Both the position numbers and the translations under genes were made by a program. Below, one piece after another: positions 733 through 36,231 of a DNA stretch of 64,000 nucleotides (the first letter of the stretch is position 1; every line of letters begins with the position of its first letter). The stretch is from the IMG/VR virus record IMGVR_UViG_3300046501_000132, positions 106,685-170,684 of that record; one strand, written 5' to 3'. Origin of the DNA: a virus. The notes under the pieces are model-generated. The model did not search any database. It saw only the letters and a list, made by a program, of their open reading frames with translations, and was not told where the DNA came from.

Positions 733-1503
733 TTAGATCATAGCAAGAACCCTGCCTGTGACAACCAGGTTGGGTAGCGTCGTTGTTACGACTAGATTGA
801 CGTTGTTTCCGCTAATCGAAGATGAAAGGCTGTAGAGGTTGGAGACATTCCCAACTTCATTGTATACGGAAATGTATGTGTCCGATCCGATCACAGTAAC
901 AATCGCTTCCTGGATCTGACGTTGAGAGCCAACTGAGTTCGAAACCGATACCAGAACCTTCATCGTATTGTAACGATCCTTGCGGAATGAGAATAAGTTG
1001 TTTGGTCCAGCAGAGACAATCGTTGTCGGAGTCGTTCCACCAGTATTATACAACCTGATCTTCGCCCAAGATGATGTTGTCGTGTCCCAACGCGAGAATT
1101 CTGATAGTCCATCCCCAGATCCATCGTCTTGGATAAACGTTACCTCATTTCCGGTATAGCCTGTATATTCAGAAGACAACGCCGCAGTACGTTCAGCTGC
1201 GTTCGTGAACACACCTCTAAATGAAGTGGAGCGAGTTAGATAATTGATCTTGCTATACTCAGCATCGGTTAGGACGTGGGTATTTGCATTCGAAAGCAAC
1301 TGAGTCTTAATGTTGGCTGGAAGGTTATTGGCGTCAACCATTCCCTTCAGAATCTTAGCCAACTCAGCGGATGCAACCTTCTGAGTTCCGCCTGAGAAGT
1401 CGTTCACGATAAGCGAAGCACTCAACGCTCCGCGCATTTCGGCAATCGCCTGGTCAATTTCTTGTCCAGTGAATACTGAGATATACTTTTGTGGTGTAGC
1501 CAT
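733..1503 (-). CDS. probable virion structural protein
   Basis: 256 aa, Ser/Thr/Gly/Asn-rich beta character, preceded by CTAAATA late-promoter motif. Confidence 0.6.
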   Translation of the reverse strand: MATPQKYISVFTGQEIDQAIAEMRGALSASLIVNDFSGGTQKVASAELAKILKGMVDANNLPANIKTQLLSNANTHVLTDAEYSKINYLTRSTSFRGVFTNAAERTAALSSEYTGYTGNEVTFIQDDGSGDGLSEFSRWDTTTSSWAKIRLYNTGGTTPTTIVSAGPNNLFSFRKDRYNTMKVLVSVSNSVGSQRQIQEAIVTVIGSDTYISVYNEVGNVSNLYSLSSSISGNNVNLVVTTTLPNLVVTGRVLAMI

Positions 1504-1566
1504 TATTGGTCCTTAAAGGTCTGACCCTTCATTTCCAGGCCATAAATTCATAGTGAGTGATATTAA

Positions 1567-1573
1567 TATTTAG
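1567..1573 (-). promoter_or_regulatory. T4-type late promoter CTAAATA
   Basis: same heptamer precedes other structural genes (12900-12906, 15089-15095). Confidence 0.65.
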
Positions 1574-1581
1574 TTTTTAGC

Positions 1582-1610
1582 TTTACTATGCTATGTAAAC
1601 GTAGTAGACT
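1582..1610 (+). promoter_or_regulatory. sigma70-like early/middle promoter
   Basis: TTTACT-N17-TAGACT, same class as more than 14 others in the window. Confidence 0.65.
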
Positions 1611-1638
1611 AGAGTTTAAGATATGGAGAATATGTAAT

Positions 1639-2865
1639 ATGAAAATTGCGGCTATCTATTGGCCCACTTCCTCGGTTGGAGGAATTAACTCGGTGCTCGT
1701 CGCTCTCCGGAAGGAAGCAGAGGCCAACGGAGACACTTTTGATGTGATCCGTTGTGGGAATCTGAAGACGATCAACCCGACCAAATTCGATGAACCGCAG
1801 CTGATTCGCGGCGGCGACACGTTCATCACCGTCCATGGCGAGTGCTCTCACCACCCGGACAAAGTTCAAGGCACGGTCAAGTTCTTGGAAGAGAACTATG
1901 ACGCGCTATACTTCGCATACATCTGTCCTCATGCCAATAAGGCTTATGGGGATGATCCGGTATTCTTGCCGATCTATACTGACACCAAACTCCCGAAGGT
2001 CGCATTCATCACGGATGCTTACTGGGACACATACAAAGACTGGGGCCTGATGTGCCTCCCTCACGTCAAGAAGACGTTGGTGACTCAACCCGCCTACGCG
2101 GAGCCGCTTCTGAAGTATGGACTGCCGGTTCAAGCAATTGATGCGCCGATCTTTCCTCAAGACGTAAGTCACATCAAGCGTTCGGAAGAACCGCTGGTGG
2201 TCTGGACTTCCCAATGGAAGAACATCAAGGGAATTACCAAGCTGATGCCGGTAATTCCCGAGATCACCAAGGTCGCCAAGATGGATATGTTCTCCAATGG
2301 TATCCTGTATTACCAGATGCGAGAAACCGATGAGTGGAAGGCGGCAATCGGTCGAGATCACTTCAAGGGATTCGATGGTCAAGGTGAAGCAGATTTCTTT
2401 GGCTATGTTCCCCTGGAGCAAATTCCTGAGATTCTGAAGCACTCGTGGTTCATGATTGACCTTCAGGGAATCGGCAATCCGAAATTCAAGGCATATACGC
2501 AAGGTGCGTATAATATCACGACAATCGAAGCGCTGTTGTATGGCTCGTGCCCGATCCTAGCCGATCAAGCCAAGCGTTCGATCATCCCTAATGAATTCTT
2601 CCTGACCGTTGAAGACGCGCGTCAGATTCCGGACCTGATCAAGAATAATCTGAAGTTCGCTCGCGATCAAGATCGTATCGCCGCTGCGCGGGAATGGGTT
2701 CTGGAACGCCATTCGTCCAGCAATATGTATAAGCAAGTGATCGATGCTCTGAACGGGCCGGACCCAGAACCGTTCGATCCAAGCAAGATCGTAGAAGCCG
2801 CGCCTGAACCGGAAAAGAAGCCGGAACCTGCCGCTGCTATGGATATGTTCAATATGTTTGTGTGA
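1639..2865 (+). CDS. GT-B fold glycosyltransferase, probably DNA-modifying
   Basis: N-terminal MKIAAIYW..VGGI, QWKNIKG, and YNITTIEALLYGSCPI acceptor/donor motifs; GGAG RBS before ATG 1639. Confidence 0.75.
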   Translation: MKIAAIYWPTSSVGGINSVLVALRKEAEANGDTFDVIRCGNLKTINPTKFDEPQLIRGGDTFITVHGECSHHPDKVQGTVKFLEENYDALYFAYICPHANKAYGDDPVFLPIYTDTKLPKVAFITDAYWDTYKDWGLMCLPHVKKTLVTQPAYAEPLLKYGLPVQAIDAPIFPQDVSHIKRSEEPLVVWTSQWKNIKGITKLMPVIPEITKVAKMDMFSNGILYYQMRETDEWKAAIGRDHFKGFDGQGEADFFGYVPLEQIPEILKHSWFMIDLQGIGNPKFKAYTQGAYNITTIEALLYGSCPILADQAKRSIIPNEFFLTVEDARQIPDLIKNNLKFARDQDRIAAAREWVLERHSSSNMYKQVIDALNGPDPEPFDPSKIVEAAPEPEKKPEPAAAMDMFNMFV

Positions 2866-2868
2866 TCT

Positions 2869-3432
2869 ATGACGACATTTTACGTGCTGGAAGCCCACAT
2901 TGACGATTCGTTCTTGTCGATGCACCGTCATATGACGGATTGGATCAAACAGGGCCATACCGTGATCATCGGTTCAGTCTACACCGGAGGTCGGAAACGC
3001 GACACGGAAATCAAGGCTTACGCTGAGCTCATAGGAGCCTCTACGCACTGCTATTTCCATGACCCTGAGCTAGACCCAGACCTGGGTGAGTTCACGCTCC
3101 CTAGCTCATTTATGCTGGGCCGTGAAGCACTCACAATCGTATGTCCTATCGCTATCCAGAACCACCAGCACGTGAAGCTGAGGGAATGGGTGGAGAAGTC
3201 GGTCAAGCCCGATCTGTATTACTTGGACATTCCGTACTACACCAAGGCCAAGAACGAAGACGAGGTCAACGAGAAGCTGAAAGGCTTCAAGATTGTGAGT
3301 GTGAAGAAGCCAACTCACATGAAGGGCAAGGACAAGTACTGGAAGTGCTTCAAAGGACAATCCAAGTATTTCTTCTATAACCCGCCTGAGAGTTGGGTTC
3401 AGATTCCGGAAATCCTATTGGAGAAAGAATGA
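2869..3432 (+). CDS. PIG-L/LmbE-family de-N-acetylase
   Basis: AHIDDS (HxDD metal motif), R..E motif, NHQH second His motif, YYLDIPY. Confidence 0.75.
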   Translation: MTTFYVLEAHIDDSFLSMHRHMTDWIKQGHTVIIGSVYTGGRKRDTEIKAYAELIGASTHCYFHDPELDPDLGEFTLPSSFMLGREALTIVCPIAIQNHQHVKLREWVEKSVKPDLYYLDIPYYTKAKNEDEVNEKLKGFKIVSVKKPTHMKGKDKYWKCFKGQSKYFFYNPPESWVQIPEILLEKE

Positions 3433-4664
3433 AGATCATTATCTATGATAACTTCGTTTGCTCTCCGATGGAAGGTCGTGGTGCGGCGGGTGGTCTGGAG
3501 AAGGTGGCGAAGGATGATGCTTTCAATCTGACTCGCGCTGGTCATGATGTGATCTTCTTGTATGCGGGACATCAATGCAAGTATGACTTCCCGTTCCGGA
3601 CGATGCAAGTTCACGAGAAGTCGAAAGAAGACGTCATCGAGCAAGACGGTAGCATCGTCGCTTGGCAGAATCGGGTCGTGGCGAATGTGATCAACATTAT
3701 CAAGCGTGAAGAGCCTGATATCATGTTGTATCATAGTCATACGACTTCCCCGGCCAAGAAGATCATCAAGGAAACTGGAATCCCGACGCTGATGACGATT
3801 CACGGGTTCCTGACGGGCAATCTGTTTATCGACACCGGGCGGATCACCGCCTATCGTGAACTTTGTGAAATGGGCGCGTATCTGGTCACCAATACAGAAG
3901 CCACCGGAAAGCGCATCTTCAAGCAGGCAAAGTTGGTTCGTGATCGCTACGTCAAGAACGAGCAGGATTATTGGAACTTCGTCCGAATCATTGATGATCA
4001 GCTTCCGTTCTATCATGACTTCCACCGGACATTCATGTTCGTGGAAGAAGAATTTGAGATCAAGGAATCGAGCGGGCGGGCGATCACCGCATCCCGCGCC
4101 GATCCTCTGAAGCTGACCCACAAGTTCAAGGACATCAAGCACCCGCTGGACATCTTCTGGAAGTCGTTCCCATCGACAAGTAAGACTTATCCCAAGTGGC
4201 TTGAAACCAACCGTGGATACTTCGGGGATAATCCTGATATCAAGTTCTATTGGAATTGGAAGTATAGCGGTATCATGGATACGTTCTCTCAAGCCAAGGC
4301 GTGTCTGATTACCTGGCCGGATGAGACTTTCGGATTGACTGCATTCGAAGCCGCACAAAAGGGCGTGCCGTCGATCTGTATGCATAAGGGTGAACTCAGT
4401 TGTACGGCTGAGTTCCTGTCGCGTGTTAGCAAGCCAGTTCTCATCGACTATCGGGACAAGAACTTCGTCGATCAAGTTGTAGATGCGCTCAATAATATCG
4501 ATGATAGTCTTCATACTCGTCAGGCTTTCGCAGAGGACTTCCGTACATACTTCAGCTATACTAGCTGGGTGAATGAGAAAGAGGAATTTATGCGCAGAGC
4601 GATCAATATGATGAAAGAGGTTGGTCGGCCTGAACCGAGTTCCCTGTTTAACGATTGGAGCTGA
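3429..4664 (+). CDS. GT4-like (GT-B) glycosyltransferase
   Basis: GGLEK N-terminal motif, TIHG, ETFGLTAFEA (E-X7-E); ATGA overlap with upstream gene. Confidence 0.85.
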   Translation: MKIIIYDNFVCSPMEGRGAAGGLEKVAKDDAFNLTRAGHDVIFLYAGHQCKYDFPFRTMQVHEKSKEDVIEQDGSIVAWQNRVVANVINIIKREEPDIMLYHSHTTSPAKKIIKETGIPTLMTIHGFLTGNLFIDTGRITAYRELCEMGAYLVTNTEATGKRIFKQAKLVRDRYVKNEQDYWNFVRIIDDQLPFYHDFHRTFMFVEEEFEIKESSGRAITASRADPLKLTHKFKDIKHPLDIFWKSFPSTSKTYPKWLETNRGYFGDNPDIKFYWNWKYSGIMDTFSQAKACLITWPDETFGLTAFEAAQKGVPSICMHKGELSCTAEFLSRVSKPVLIDYRDKNFVDQVVDALNNIDDSLHTRQAFAEDFRTYFSYTSWVNEKEEFMRRAINMMKEVGRPEPSSLFNDWS

Positions 4665-4665
4665 T

Positions 4666-5109
4666 GTGAGTGTTCTGAATGCAGTGAAGCGCGCCTATGG
4701 GGTCATGGAACAACGTGGGTGGGATACGGTCTATTGGGCTGTCGATCTCCACGGTGTATGTCTGGAATCCAACTACAAGCAGGGTGGTTACCAGTGGATC
4801 AACCAGACCGCGAAAGAGACGCTTCAGTTGATTTCGATGCTCCCCGAGAGCAAGATCATCCTCTGGTCGTCGGTACACGCCAATGAACAATACGATATTA
4901 TCAAGTTCTTTCGGGATGCAGATATTGCAGTTTTCGATTTCAATCAAAACCGATTCGAGAAAAGCAATCACTGTTCCAACTTCGATGAGAAGTTCTACTT
5001 CAGCGTTTTGCTGGATGATAAGGCTGGATTTGATCCGAAAACAGATTGGGCTGAGATTAACACGTATTTGACGTTGCAAGCGTATGGAAGAGGGTTGTTC
5101 AATGAATGA
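4666..5109 (+). CDS. HAD-superfamily phosphatase-like protein
   Basis: AVDLHG motif I variant, ILWSS motif II, LLDDKAG motif IV. Confidence 0.6.
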   Translation: MSVLNAVKRAYGVMEQRGWDTVYWAVDLHGVCLESNYKQGGYQWINQTAKETLQLISMLPESKIILWSSVHANEQYDIIKFFRDADIAVFDFNQNRFEKSNHCSNFDEKFYFSVLLDDKAGFDPKTDWAEINTYLTLQAYGRGLFNE

Positions 5110-5289: not shown

Positions 5290-5550
5290 ATGAGTATGAG
5301 TCAGTACGCGACAAAGGAAGAATACCAAGCGTCGCAAAACAATAAGCCGGTGGTGCATTTTCTCAATGAGGCCACTTTCGAAGACAACTGGATGGGAACC
5401 GGCTGTAAGGTTGCCCATTGTGTGGTGATCGATCACCCGCGTCTTGGTCAGAGTGATGTACGCACGAGTGCAGTCATCAAGATCAATGAGGATGGTTCGT
5501 TCGAAACTCGCAATAGCATCTACCAACCGATTCAACAACTGAACGGTTAA
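5290..5550 (+). CDS. hypothetical phage protein
   Basis: AAGGAG RBS; DHPRLG..VRTSAVIK..ETRNSIY pattern seen in small phage proteins. Confidence 0.6.
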   Translation: MSMSQYATKEEYQASQNNKPVVHFLNEATFEDNWMGTGCKVAHCVVIDHPRLGQSDVRTSAVIKINEDGSFETRNSIYQPIQQLNG

Positions 5551-6050
5551 TGGCTGGGCGGGTAGTTAAACCGCCAGTCAGACGAGAAAACGCTTACACA
5601 GAGGTGAGCGTTTTTCTTGCTGGCAGCATCGAAATGGGCAAGGCGGTCGATTGGCAGTACGCACTAGGCGAATCTCTGACCTACTTCCACGAAGTGGGTA
5701 ATATATACAATCCAAGGCGTGACGACTGGGACTCCAGTTGGGAACAGCGCAAGGATAATCCTCAGTTCAACGAACAAGTCACTTGGGAGTTGGATCATAT
5801 TGAGGATGCAGACATCGTATTCTTCAACTTTATCCCCGATACGCAATCCCCCATCACTCTCCTAGAGCTGGGATTTGCGCTGGGTCAGATGAAGGAAGTC
5901 ATCGTTTGTTGTCCTCCAGGCTTCTGGCGTAAGGGAAATATCGACATCCTTTGTGATCGTGAGTCGGTGACAGTTTATGATGACTACACGCAGGCAATCG
6001 CTGCACTATATAAGAGGATACACGGAATCTATGAGGAAATGAAACAATGA
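5550..6050 (+). CDS. nucleoside 2-deoxyribosyltransferase-like protein (NDT/DNPH1 fold)
   Basis: VFLAGSI, YNPRR, QVTWELDH, SPITLLELG motifs. Confidence 0.85.
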   Translation: MAGRVVKPPVRRENAYTEVSVFLAGSIEMGKAVDWQYALGESLTYFHEVGNIYNPRRDDWDSSWEQRKDNPQFNEQVTWELDHIEDADIVFFNFIPDTQSPITLLELGFALGQMKEVIVCCPPGFWRKGNIDILCDRESVTVYDDYTQAIAALYKRIHGIYEEMKQ

Positions 6051-6289
6051 ATATTGAAGTGCAAATCGCATTGCTAGAAAAACGCAAGCGTGAAATCGAA
6101 CTTGATTATGAGGCTGATGATAATCGCCTCCAAGGACTTCTGGCTGAAGGTCGGAAGATTGCCAAGATTGTAGACGCCAAGAAAGAAAAAGCCCAACATC
6201 TGGAATTCGCCATCACCAATCTTCGCGCTCTGCATGACATTGAGGTTGAGGAAGCGGTCCCTGAGGAAGACCCTTGGGGTGATGATTGA
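6047..6289 (+). CDS. coiled-coil hypothetical protein
   Basis: ATGA overlap, GAGG RBS. Confidence 0.55.
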   Translation: MNIEVQIALLEKRKREIELDYEADDNRLQGLLAEGRKIAKIVDAKKEKAQHLEFAITNLRALHDIEVEEAVPEEDPWGDD

Positions 6290-6653
6290 CATCACCAAGT
6301 TTCATAATCGGGCCAAACTGATATTCGACCGAGAGAATCTAGGCAACTACAAGCAGCGCGTAGTTGCTTTTGTCTTAGATTCCAAAGGTCGGATACTCAC
6401 AGAAGGATGGAATTCTTATACCAAGACGCATCCAGTCCAACAACAAGCTGCCTTGGCTCATGACGAGAAGAAGTGTTTTCTCCACGCTGAGATCCACGCT
6501 CTCACTCGACTGCGGTATAAGCAGTTGTCTAAGCAAGAAACAATTGTGGTGCTTCGGATGGACGTTAGTAAACGCTTACTTCCGGGCGCGCCCTGTAGCA
6601 TTTGTCAAGATGTTATCTCTCAGTTCGGGATCACGAACATCGTGCATTCCTAA
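6282..6653 (+). CDS. cytidine/deoxycytidylate deaminase-fold zinc protein
   Basis: HAE and PCSIC zinc motifs, GWNS. Confidence 0.8.
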   Translation: MIDITKFHNRAKLIFDRENLGNYKQRVVAFVLDSKGRILTEGWNSYTKTHPVQQQAALAHDEKKCFLHAEIHALTRLRYKQLSKQETIVVLRMDVSKRLLPGAPCSICQDVISQFGITNIVHS

Positions 6654-33570: not shown

Positions 33571-34161
33571 TTAATTCAGGGTCAGCGGAGTTTCCTTGGA
33601 CTTATCATAAGTCCCAGCTTGTTGTCCGCCTTCAACACGCTTTTGATTCTGAGCATTCTTGAGATAGTATGCCTTGGTGATATCGCCTTCATTCAGTCCG
33701 ATCAGAACCGCGCCAGTCTCAATCAGATTGAGTAGGCTAATCAGCGCCCGGAATTCATTCTCATTATAGATTGATTCGATGAAGTTGTATTGGGCCTTAG
33801 CAAAGTACAGATGTTTATCCTCATACTTCCCATACATAGTCGTTTCGACTTGTTCGTTTTTCAACAAGTCTTTGATATACGATAGATCGTTGTTCAGAAG
33901 GACAAGAAGCATCGCAAAATGCACAGCATCGATCAGTTCGAATGCCGCTTTGTCTTTGTCGATAGGGACAGCAAGCGCCTTGCCGGACCACCACTTCCAG
34001 GTCGAACGGATTTCCTCAGCGAACTCAGCAACTTCCGTTTGGAAGGCAAAGATCGCCTGTCCCTTCATCACAGTCTTACGCCATTCTGGACCGTTATACT
34101 TGATATTCAGAGCCTCTTGGGCTTCGAACATCTCAATCAGGTCCATCTTATCGAAAATCAT
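33571..34161 (-). CDS. dimeric (all-alpha) dUTPase
   Basis: EVAEFAEE, WKWW, ELIDAVHF, YYLKNAQNQKR. Confidence 0.88.
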   Translation of the reverse strand: MIFDKMDLIEMFEAQEALNIKYNGPEWRKTVMKGQAIFAFQTEVAEFAEEIRSTWKWWSGKALAVPIDKDKAAFELIDAVHFAMLLVLLNNDLSYIKDLLKNEQVETTMYGKYEDKHLYFAKAQYNFIESIYNENEFRALISLLNLIETGAVLIGLNEGDITKAYYLKNAQNQKRVEGGQQAGTYDKSKETPLTLN

Positions 34162-34715
34162 AGCGCTCCTTCTTGATGTATGAAGGAATAGAAGAAACGA
34201 TCAAACTCAGCCGTCCCATTCATTCGATTAATGAATAGTTGATCATAATCCTTGAACTCACGAACATACTGTTCGAAGTCCGAAGGGGGCAGGCCATCCC
34301 GGCTTTCACGTTCGATCTTCAGAACCGGGATACCAACGTCCTGAATGAATTCCCATTCCTGTGGAGTCCGGAAGTCCGTAATGATAAACAGCTTATCAGG
34401 ATTATAGCACTCGTCCAGAGCGTTCCAGTTGTTATCTTCGAACTTATGAACAAAGAAGTGCGGATCAACGTCACGAACCTTACCGACCGTCAACCAGATT
34501 TGGCGTGGAGTTAGGTTATTCGGGTTCTGTGGATGTACAAACGGCAAATCCTTCTGCTCCGGGGTGATATCCATCGGGAGCCAAGGGAAGATTTGAGATG
34601 CAAGACGGCGCACCTCATCCGAAAAAGAAAGGCGCACCGCGCCCCGAGTTGCTACCAGATGATCACAAAAGAAGTCCTTGCCGCTTTTGTATTCACCCAT
34701 AAATGCTACGATCAT
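34158..34715 (-). CDS. deoxynucleoside monophosphate kinase (T4 gp1-like)
   Basis: GEYKSGKD P-loop, LSFSD, TPRQ, IITDFRTPQE; own AGAGG RBS before ATG 34715. Confidence 0.88.
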   Translation of the reverse strand: MIVAFMGEYKSGKDFFCDHLVATRGAVRLSFSDEVRRLASQIFPWLPMDITPEQKDLPFVHPQNPNNLTPRQIWLTVGKVRDVDPHFFVHKFEDNNWNALDECYNPDKLFIITDFRTPQEWEFIQDVGIPVLKIERESRDGLPPSDFEQYVREFKDYDQLFINRMNGTAEFDRFFYSFIHQEGAL

Positions 34716-35069
34716 TTTGCCTCTTTTAACTTGATAACTCTCATCGTAGATCCATCGTTCCCTCAGGTTTTGCTCCTTGGTGATAAATCTACAATTTCCC
34801 ACACGATAAACGCCTTCATCCCGATACCTTCCGAGTTGGTAAGAATCGGGTTCCAATCCAATTTGGTTCGCTCGCGTCAACCCGGCATCTACAGCTAACC
34901 GGGTGTACTGCTCAAACGTCAACTCACATTGTCTCTGGAGCCTAACTGCTCGTGCCTTTAGGTTTTGCCAATTCTTTAACCAGGCACGCAGTTCGCTAGG
35001 ATCCAGTCCAATGACTTTTAGATAGTTTTCACGAGCATCCATCAACGCCTTGACCTCAGCCCGTTTCAA
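34716..35069 (-). CDS. HNH-like nuclease domain reading in frame into the dNMP kinase
   Basis: LTFEQY, LGRYRDEGVYRVGNCRFITKEQN; TTG start after GAGGTG; no stop before kinase. Confidence 0.55.
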
Positions 35070-35070
35070 C

Positions 35071-36156
35071 TTACACCTCGATGTCGAATTTGCGGAATGA
35101 AGACAACTCGATGGCTCGAACCAATTCAACCGGGGCTTCAGTCAGATCAACAACCGCACTCAACTCAACACCCCGCTTCGCGGCGATATAATGAGCAACG
35201 AGTTGTGCATACACCCACATCAGGTTATTTTCAAGCGGAACGTTGTATTCCAAGAAGGTATGACCCAGATGAGAGATAATCGTGCTCAGAATGAACTCAG
35301 GCTCATCGGTCGTGATCGCTTCGATATATTGAGCAACCAGATCGCTGAAGAAAGCCTTCCATAGTCGAATCTCAGGGCCGATTAGCGGAACATCACTCTC
35401 ATCATACGAATTCGTATAGTTGGCGGAGATTTCGGTTGCATCATCCGCTTGACCCCGCGAAAAGTCGTATAGGTGGGCATTCGTCACGTGCCAGCGATAT
35501 GGGCCCAGCTTCAGTTGAGGGCTGCTCTTCTTGATCTCGTTGTACATCAACTCGTGAAGGAACGAGAACTCAAATGGATTGATCGAGCCGGTACCAAAGA
35601 TGATGTCGCCACTTCGCTGAATCACCTTAGTACAGAATTGATCTTCGCCTTCAACGTAGAAGTTGATACCCAAGTTACAGGGTCGATCCTTACCCAGTTC
35701 TCCGAAGCCGAACCGCTCTTCAATTGCCTTGGTCGAATCCTTATGAAGATCATGAATCGTCACATACGCACGGCGGGTATATAGACTATCTCGGATGAAC
35801 AGATCGGGGATAGACACCAACTGATTCTCATCATAGAATCGCGGGCCATAGGCACCGCTCCAAGTCTCACCATCATCCGAATACTGAGGCGCACGCGGGA
35901 GGAAGAAAGACAAGTAAGGATTCACACGATCATCACCGGCCATAACCCAGAAAGTCTCCGCGATTAGAGCGAAGATATTGGATTTGCGACCTTCAAGGTG
36001 TAGATGTCGGGATCGGGGATTGCCTAGCTCAAACGTTACGTCAAAGATAGACGTGCAACCACCGTTACGGGAAGGGCGATAATGGCCCTCATTGATAATT
36101 GTATTGAATGCTTCTAGAACAACTTGTGAAACGGTCCTGCCTCTTACCAGGTGCAT
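35071..36156 (-). CDS. thymidylate-synthase-superfamily enzyme, probably dUMP hydroxymethylase
   Basis: GAYGPR, KDRPCN catalytic Cys, QRSGDIIFGTGSIN (Asn specificity residue with 1-aa insertion), NAHLY. Confidence 0.8.
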   Translation of the reverse strand: MHLVRGRTVSQVVLEAFNTIINEGHYRPSRNGGCTSIFDVTFELGNPRSRHLHLEGRKSNIFALIAETFWVMAGDDRVNPYLSFFLPRAPQYSDDGETWSGAYGPRFYDENQLVSIPDLFIRDSLYTRRAYVTIHDLHKDSTKAIEERFGFGELGKDRPCNLGINFYVEGEDQFCTKVIQRSGDIIFGTGSINPFEFSFLHELMYNEIKKSSPQLKLGPYRWHVTNAHLYDFSRGQADDATEISANYTNSYDESDVPLIGPEIRLWKAFFSDLVAQYIEAITTDEPEFILSTIISHLGHTFLEYNVPLENNLMWVYAQLVAHYIAAKRGVELSAVVDLTEAPVELVRAIELSSFRKFDIEV

Positions 36157-36231
36157 CTTGAACTACTAGCCTCTATGGAAAATTAAAGAACGACTATTCT
36201 ATATGGATTTTACATCGAAGTAAAATGAAAC

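Follow-up and report, generated by a model that had tools for sequence, protein, structure and literature searches.

The window analysed here (64,000 bp) is the final 64 kb of the 170,684-bp virus record IMGVR_UViG_3300046501_000132 (positions 106,685 to 170,684; completeness rating 100%). It carries three adjacent genes, termed A, B and C, predicted to encode (i) a glycosyltransferase of the GT-B fold, (ii) a PIG-L/LmbE-fold de-N-acetylase and (iii) a GT4-like glycosyltransferase. With a probability of roughly 0.65, A puts an N-acetylhexosamine (HexNAc) on 5-hydroxymethyluracil (hmU) in phage DNA, B frees its amine and C extends the sugar, in a pathway that would be kinase-independent and post-replicative. 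A preliminary description of this DNA had proposed the same succession of enzymes on hmU; each of its testable steps held, and the identity of the sugar, its linkage and DNA as the acceptor are what we infer.

The whole record (G000; other G-numbers denote the genomes or records compared with it, and L-numbers denote loci) is a T4-like genome, of which 61 open reading frames (ORFs) match Salmonella phage ViI with a median identity of 35%. This uncultured soil phage turns up in rhizosphere metagenomes, and one independent rhizosphere contig, which may nonetheless be the source sample, is identical to the window over positions 1400–4603 (0 differences).

Genes A, B and C and their predicted products

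Genes A (1639–2865; 408 aa), B (2869–3432; 187 aa) and C (3429–4664; 411 aa) lie on the plus strand and are tightly coupled, as described initially: the sequence GGAG precedes A (1625–1628), B starts 3 nt past A, and the start of C overlaps the stop of B (ATGA). The putative early-type promoter upstream of A (TTTACT-N17-TAGACT; 1582–1610, plus strand) was confirmed as a member of a genome-wide motif family, TTTACT-N16/18-TANANT, with 25 copies in G000 against 0.5 expected from Markov shuffles; a generic sigma-70 scan did not pick it up. Another putative promoter of this family (36196–36224, minus strand) is located upstream of the hydroxymethylase cassette described below.

Since Pfam support is weak for both A (E 0.09) and B (PIG-L, E 0.02), the labels of these genes rest on folds and deep profiles. 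The predicted model of A (predicted local distance difference test score 93) has a GT-B fold of the retaining class, and its best match in a VIA search of 48,161 chains was the T4 alpha-glucosyltransferase (AGT; 1y6f; Z 26.9, root-mean-square deviation 3.9, 342 residues aligned), followed by BshA (Z 25.6). A 97-sequence profile of A also placed AGT first in the PDB, over its full length (E 1.6e-15; 60.5 bits vs 50.6 bits for the runner-up). A value of 98% was obtained for this pair with hhalign, and alpha-glucosyltransferase is the sole PHROG match within the gene A family. A deeper profile was needed to reach this result, a shallow one having given no match in the PDB and, at best, a weak one to AGT. 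In an alignment made without superposition, the AGT active-site residues D115 and E311 correspond to the matching D126 and E297 of A, and two others differ (see below). The comparison with AGT bears out the earlier assignment of A to the GT-B enzymes: by predicted fold and by profile, its nearest solved relative is the T4 DNA alpha-glucosyltransferase. We propose A as the candidate first transferase, acting with HexNAc on hmU. The placement of T4 AGT in a gene A tree was not used, as it formed a long branch.

Gene B scores 15.7 bits against PF02585, below the gathering cut-off of 28.2, and represents a divergent, short subfamily. In structural comparison it matched seven LmbE-family structures at Z 13.1–18.6 (including Dbv21, 18.6; BC1534, 15.6; and MshB, 13.1), while the next, unrelated structure scored 8.0. 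The metal ligands of the HxDD motif and the distal His (H10, D12, D13 and H101) are invariant in 19 homologues. Given this fold and these ligands, B should be an active metal-dependent de-N-acetylase, in agreement with its first description as an HxDD deacetylase of the PIG-L/LmbE type.

Gene C matches PF13439 (E 4e-8) and contains an E-X7-E motif (E299-X7-E307). Its profile finds 9IQZ first in the PDB (E 1e-7, against 5e-4 for the second match); this is the RB69 gp3 orthologue from HY126, and C is homologous to it over its length. The GT4-like label stands. A role as second DNA arabinosyltransferase has been proposed for RB69 gp3, though not shown singly (PMC13326640), and on the basis of this kinship C is proposed as a candidate chain extender acting on DNA.

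A homologue of C (E 1e-20) is one of three glycosyltransferase-like genes of the cultured Acinetobacter phage vB_AbaM_3098 (PV081573; L113:2446-7798), in which a PIG-L-like gene adjoins a topoisomerase-like gene; all of these glycosyltransferase-like and PIG-L-like genes are annotated as hypothetical. This phage constitutes a tractable relative.

hmU supply and the search for a known hypermodification route

The phage very likely makes hmU in place of thymine. The minus strand of the window encodes (i) a predicted dUMP hydroxymethylase (35071–36156; phrog_3676, E 1e-85), which is a thymidylate synthase (TS) homologue with Cys160 and Asn193, (ii) a dNMP kinase (34158–35129; phrog_139, E 4e-31) and (iii) a dUTPase_2-family pyrophosphohydrolase, probably a dUTPase/dTTPase (33571–34161; PF08761, E 1e-19). 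Sequence identity of the hydroxymethylase amounts to 42% with phiW-14 gp230 and 40% with the dUMP hydroxymethylase of SH-Ab 15599. Its Cys/Asn motifs are nearly identical to those of gp230, and the Asp typical of dCMP hydroxymethylases is absent, Asn193 standing in its place as in gp230. The kinase and pyrophosphohydrolase genes are syntenic with phiW-14 gp231 and gp232, and the order hydroxymethylase, dNMP kinase, dUTPase, UvsX is that of phiW-14 and ViI. Neither ThyA nor ThyX was found in G000 (controls positive). It is the homology, motifs and synteny, together with the lack of ThyA and ThyX, that make hmU synthesis very likely. The early recognition of a dUTPase, a dNMP kinase and an Asn-type TS homologue at 33.5–36.2 kb in a probable hmU phage was therefore well founded, the last of these being a hydroxymethylase of the phiW-14 type.

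The kinase domain of ORF 34158–35129 spans approximately residues 138–313, and the true start of the ORF is uncertain. The additional N-terminal sequence of this ORF faintly matches HNH (phrog_374, E 0.03) and could be an endonuclease, either separate or decayed.

G000 also encodes a stand-alone aGPT-Pplase1 (Pplase1; G000:77575-78642, equal to L005:4575-5642, outside the window; PF18723, E 3e-65), in which C308-E309 is invariant and C308 is aligned with the catalytic Cys of the amino acid:DNA transferase (ADDT, aGPT-Pplase2). PF18723 (HMUDK_hel) was rejected as an indicator of the hmU kinase: the kinase belongs to the P-loop proteins, whereas this profile describes the helical domain of aGPT-Pplase1. 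When the 5-hmU DNA kinases of phiW-14, YuA, SP10, ViI (both) and L010 were used as queries, no homologue was found in G000 (controls worked); the best match was an AAA_33 kinase beside an RNA ligase, and a very divergent kinase is conceivable. Two P-loop ORFs, G000:61621-62109 (AAA_33, adjoining the RNA ligase) and G000:2135-2698 (AAA_28), do not resemble HMUDK. PF18748 missed the phiW-14 control, and the negative result for the kinase rests on the direct searches with known kinases.

Likewise, three ADDTs used as queries revealed none in G000 (phiW-14 control positive), a ViI ORF taken for a pyridoxal phosphate (PLP) decarboxylase has no homologue there, and the positions of the ViI kinase and ADDT genes are empty. 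No match to PF12851 (JBP/TET dioxygenase) was obtained in G000, in a search run without a positive control, and no TAGT-like ORF was found there with a local profile. An MshC/BshC cysteine ligase, for which no profile search was made, was not recognised in the ORF list. The replicase is a gp43 homologous to that of ViI and not a family A DNA polymerase fused to uracil-DNA glycosylase. The lack of an hmU kinase and of an amino acid:DNA transferase, first noted for the window, thus extends to the whole genome, and the remainder of the genome supplied Pplase1. G000 appears to possess the entry to thymidine hypermodification and a marker of it, without the known way to carry it out.

Several ORFs follow gene C. 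A small one (4666–5109) has a weak phrog_1238 match (E 3e-4) and keeps its position in close relatives, whether C is present or not. Further downstream, on the strand of gene C, are a nucleoside 2-deoxyribosyltransferase-like gene (5550–6050; PF15891) and a short deaminase-like gene (6234–6653; PF00383); a second set of dCMP deaminase motifs, of the typical kind, is located at L005:7373-7894.

The conserved A-B pair and its exchangeable neighbour

Gene A has 117 close homologues, and 44 loci, with a few near-duplicates among them, were compared. B adjoins A in 36 of the 44, and seven of the eight exceptions are cut by a contig end within 345 bp, so that the pair is kept in 36 of 37 untruncated loci. 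Pplase1 is present in 23 of the 44 loci and the hydroxymethylase in 17, the latter usually adjacent; all full-length neighbouring TS homologues or hydroxymethylases carry Asn. The carriers include unrelated T4-like and PolA-type phages (32–64% GC), in which a single compact cluster, near polymerase genes and genes of nucleotide metabolism such as an HD nucleotidase, brings A and B together with Pplase1 and the hydroxymethylase. Among whole viral records with gene A, Pplase1 (PF18723) was found in 11 of 11, ADDT in none and the kinase in one, the direct kinase search covering five of these records. Co-occurrence across related phages, raised as a check in the preliminary description, therefore points to A and B together with Pplase1 and the dUMP hydroxymethylase as the conserved unit. 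The three genes are coupled in this genome as first stated, but the operon does not hold as a module, C being exchangeable.

The constant presence of Pplase1 bears on a different pathway, in which A and B would make a soluble amino sugar that the Pplase1 cysteine joins to hmU, N- or O-linked, via an exocyclic-methylene intermediate. Besides the 11 of 11 records, this agrees with the correspondence of C308 to the ADDT catalytic Cys (PMC8989533), with SP10, which has the clade-1 (Pplase) domain only (PMC5889632), and with BshA as the second structural match of A. However, ADDT chemistry needs phospho-hmU, and a kinase was found neither in G000 nor in four near-complete relatives. Furthermore, the nearest relatives of both A and C are transferases that act on DNA, and Pplase1 is dispensable for hypermodification in M6 lysates (PMC8989533). 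Such a transfer by Pplase1 seems unlikely. Since Pplase1 is kept without kinase or ADDT, these phages offer a clean test of its role.

The slot following A-B is occupied by C in G000, L008 and L086, and by a TAGT (JGT-like) transferase in L090; the L090 and L008 phages are sisters (support 100/100). In the close T4-like relatives L058 (11805–14762) and L088 (9768–12663), PglD-, DegT- and PglF-like genes directly follow A-B. These resemble the PglD/E/F genes for synthesis of N-acetylated sugar nucleotides, which suggests a phage-made donor of the bacillosamine type and fits an N-acetylated donor for A. In L023 the slot is taken by Pplase1, in L020 and L091 the hydroxymethylase cassette comes a few genes further along, and in L056 the slot is empty. 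C is an exchangeable accessory outside the conserved core. In the complete genome G013, B occurs with TAGT and without A.

Loci in which B is paired with TAGT, with no A nearby, are L106:4193-10000, which also contains radical SAM genes, and L100:4689-11626, whose complete genome lacks A. In locus L010 (9869–16814) of one phage, a methyltransferase-like gene and a true 5-hmU kinase accompany A, B, Pplase1 and TS, and ADDT is absent. In A-B-Pplase1-TS clusters of L018 (2031–3022), L013, L031 and L032 there is a sulfotransferase-like gene, once accompanied by an adenosine 5′-phosphosulfate (APS) kinase-like gene; a sulfated base is possible in these cases. Distant relatives of A are found with methyltransferases beside the hydroxymethylase, in one case also with Pplase1.

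The tailoring genes thus differ among loci: methyltransferase, radical SAM and PglD/E/F genes occur, as do sulfotransferase-like genes, alone or alongside APS kinase. This variety would suit another thymidine chemistry, in which A would act on the mononucleotide ahead of replication, the sugar would be something other than a simple HexNAc, or capping of the amine would give a non-cationic base. It has also been left undecided whether the first arabinosylation in the RB69-type pathway takes place on the nucleotide (PMC13326640). Nevertheless, AGT acts on duplex DNA, no capping enzyme was recognised in the G000 operon, and a glycosylated dNTP would probably burden a standard gp43 polymerase; we consider such chemistry rather improbable.

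The proposed pathway and known DNA modification systems

In the pathway that we favour, amino-sugar formation on hmU in DNA, hmdUTP would be made via dCMP deaminase, dUMP hydroxymethylase, dNMP kinase and dUTPase/dTTPase, and hmU would be replicated in place of T; the support from homology for this step is strong. The AGT-like, retaining enzyme A would then attach an N-acetylhexosamine at the 5-hydroxymethyl oxygen of hmU in DNA; in the simplest case this would be GlcNAc, with host UDP-GlcNAc as the donor. B, whose class follows from fold and motif, would strip the acetyl group, so that an amino sugar with a positive charge would lie in the major groove. C, judging by its relative and by the slot exchange, may add a second sugar at part of the sites. 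The likely purpose of the modification is to block host nucleases. The unlinked Pplase1 is probably machinery common to T-hypermodifying phages. Virions of known hypermodifying phages have T, not hmU, at unmodified sites (PMC8989533), and no paper was found that assigns the hmU-to-T step implied by this result; as a speculation, Pplase1 may turn leftover hmU into T. A more general and clearly more tentative proposal is a widespread route in which an AGT-derived enzyme and a PIG-L enzyme put a free amino sugar straight on hmU to give cationic DNA, the third slot diversifies it (into a disaccharide, a bacillosamine-type sugar, or a sulfated or methylated product) and Pplase1 converts hmU to T, with no phosphorylation.

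Several observations weigh against the favoured pathway. The identity between A and AGT is as low as 11–14%, the lead of AGT over BshA in the VIA search is 1.3 Z units, and where AGT has H114 and E306, A has T125 and N292, so that the donor or the acceptor may differ. A GT-B enzyme with a PIG-L enzyme is also the pair that acts on small molecules in MshA/B and BshA/B. No match to A or B was found by tblastn among cultured phages, leaving A without a cultured-phage homologue; one locus (L029) truly lacks B; and the ADDT-type catalytic Cys retained by Pplase1 is left unexplained by the model. Moreover, some A-B pairs have neither TS nor Pplase1 at a distance of up to 10 kb, namely those of the prophage-like loci L022 and L060 and those of a further group of T4-like phages (L046, L047, L102), for which approximately 80 kb of the partial record G015 was also negative. 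The prophage-like pairs are located at L060:10001-11649, near a terminase gene, and L022:10001-11720.

Such A-B pairs away from hmU genes could reflect an acceptor other than DNA, such as virion proteins, a conflict metabolite or, as a means of superinfection exclusion, host lipopolysaccharide or capsule, with hmU left as it is or reduced to T. Phage glycosyltransferase clusters for surface polysaccharides exist (PMC7824862), and GT4 folds are promiscuous. Against this, the genes of unrelated phages cluster tightly with those for DNA polymerase, Pplase1, HD nucleotidase and dUMP hydroxymethylase, the operon and the hmU cassette share a promoter class, and the slot can be taken by TAGT, which belongs to a family of transferases for DNA bases. 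A non-DNA acceptor seems unlikely and is the least probable of the alternatives considered.

Palindrome usage speaks against complete protection of the DNA: G000 shows overall avoidance of six-base palindromes (mean 0.65), T-containing ones included, so that protection would not be blanket. In the window and in the whole genome, avoidance is strong for CTCGAG, CCCGGG, CCGCGG and AGATCT and milder for TG-containing palindromes (0.83 vs 0.59; p 0.004, uncorrected). The corresponding values for ViI are 1.00 and 0.65, and unmodified RB49 has no such difference; one control phage of each kind was compared, and inheritance from an ancestor is possible. As the protected context in M6, ViI and phiW-14 is TG/TC (PMC6449724), the milder avoidance of TG-containing palindromes in G000 agrees with this context and is a hint at most.

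The T4 AGT system resembles that of G000 in its retaining GT-B enzyme, to which A is related over its full length and which follows a TS-family hydroxymethylase in making glucosyl-5-hydroxymethylcytosine (hmC); it differs in that here the base is of the U type (Asn), a deacetylase follows and the donor is probably N-acetylated. The arabinosyl-hydroxycytosine pathway of RB69, HY126 and DLP3 includes a homologue of C, and two GT-B enzymes build the DNA glycan stepwise, although on hydroxycytosine, with arabinose and without a deacetylase. MshA/MshB and BshA/BshB likewise combine a GT-B GlcNAc transferase with a subsequent PIG-L/LmbE deacetylase, but their acceptors are small molecules, whereas A is nearer to AGT and its context is that of DNA modification.

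With the phages ViI, M6, phiW-14, SP10 and SH-Ab 15599 (5-HMUDK and ADDT), G000 shares the dUMP hydroxymethylase cassette and its synteny, Pplase1, a similar TG-palindrome signal and a predicted cationic group at C5; unlike them, it lacks the kinase, ADDT and PLP decarboxylase, and its amine would be sugar-borne. Base J (beta-glucosyl-hmU) and the products of phage TAGT/GT-A hmC enzymes (bioRxiv 2023.12.21.572611) also arise when a sugar is joined directly, through an O-link, to a hydroxymethylpyrimidine in DNA. In relatives TAGT occupies the C slot, and in G013 it accompanies B while A is absent. Base J and the TAGT/GT-A products come, however, from GT-A systems with neutral sugars and, for base J, a JBP/TET-made precursor, in contrast to the GT-B enzymes, pre-replicative hmU and deacetylation predicted here. 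SP-15, YerA41 and Carin-5 carry sugars on thymidine via a linker and a phosphate (PMC12686479). These sugars include HexNAc, and Carin-5 encodes glycosyltransferases and a deacetylase; the differences lie in the linker and phosphate, the PolA-type polymerase and the polysaccharide-deacetylase family.

The nearest known bases are therefore glucosyl- and HexNAc-hmC, base J, the linker-borne oligosaccharide thymidines (PMC12686479) and the amine thymidines; among the papers searched, we found neither an amino sugar directly on hmU nor a PIG-L enzyme acting on DNA. What this locus contributes is the kinship of its transferases to AGT and RB69 gp3, a swappable third slot and evidence, backed by controls, for the absence of the kinase route. 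If the proposed pathway is correct, B would be the first PIG-L deacetylase on DNA known to us, the enzymes could serve for selective hmU labelling, and amino-sugar-hmU would be a charged cousin of base J, joining the two strategies known from phages, in which hmC receives sugars and hmU receives amines.

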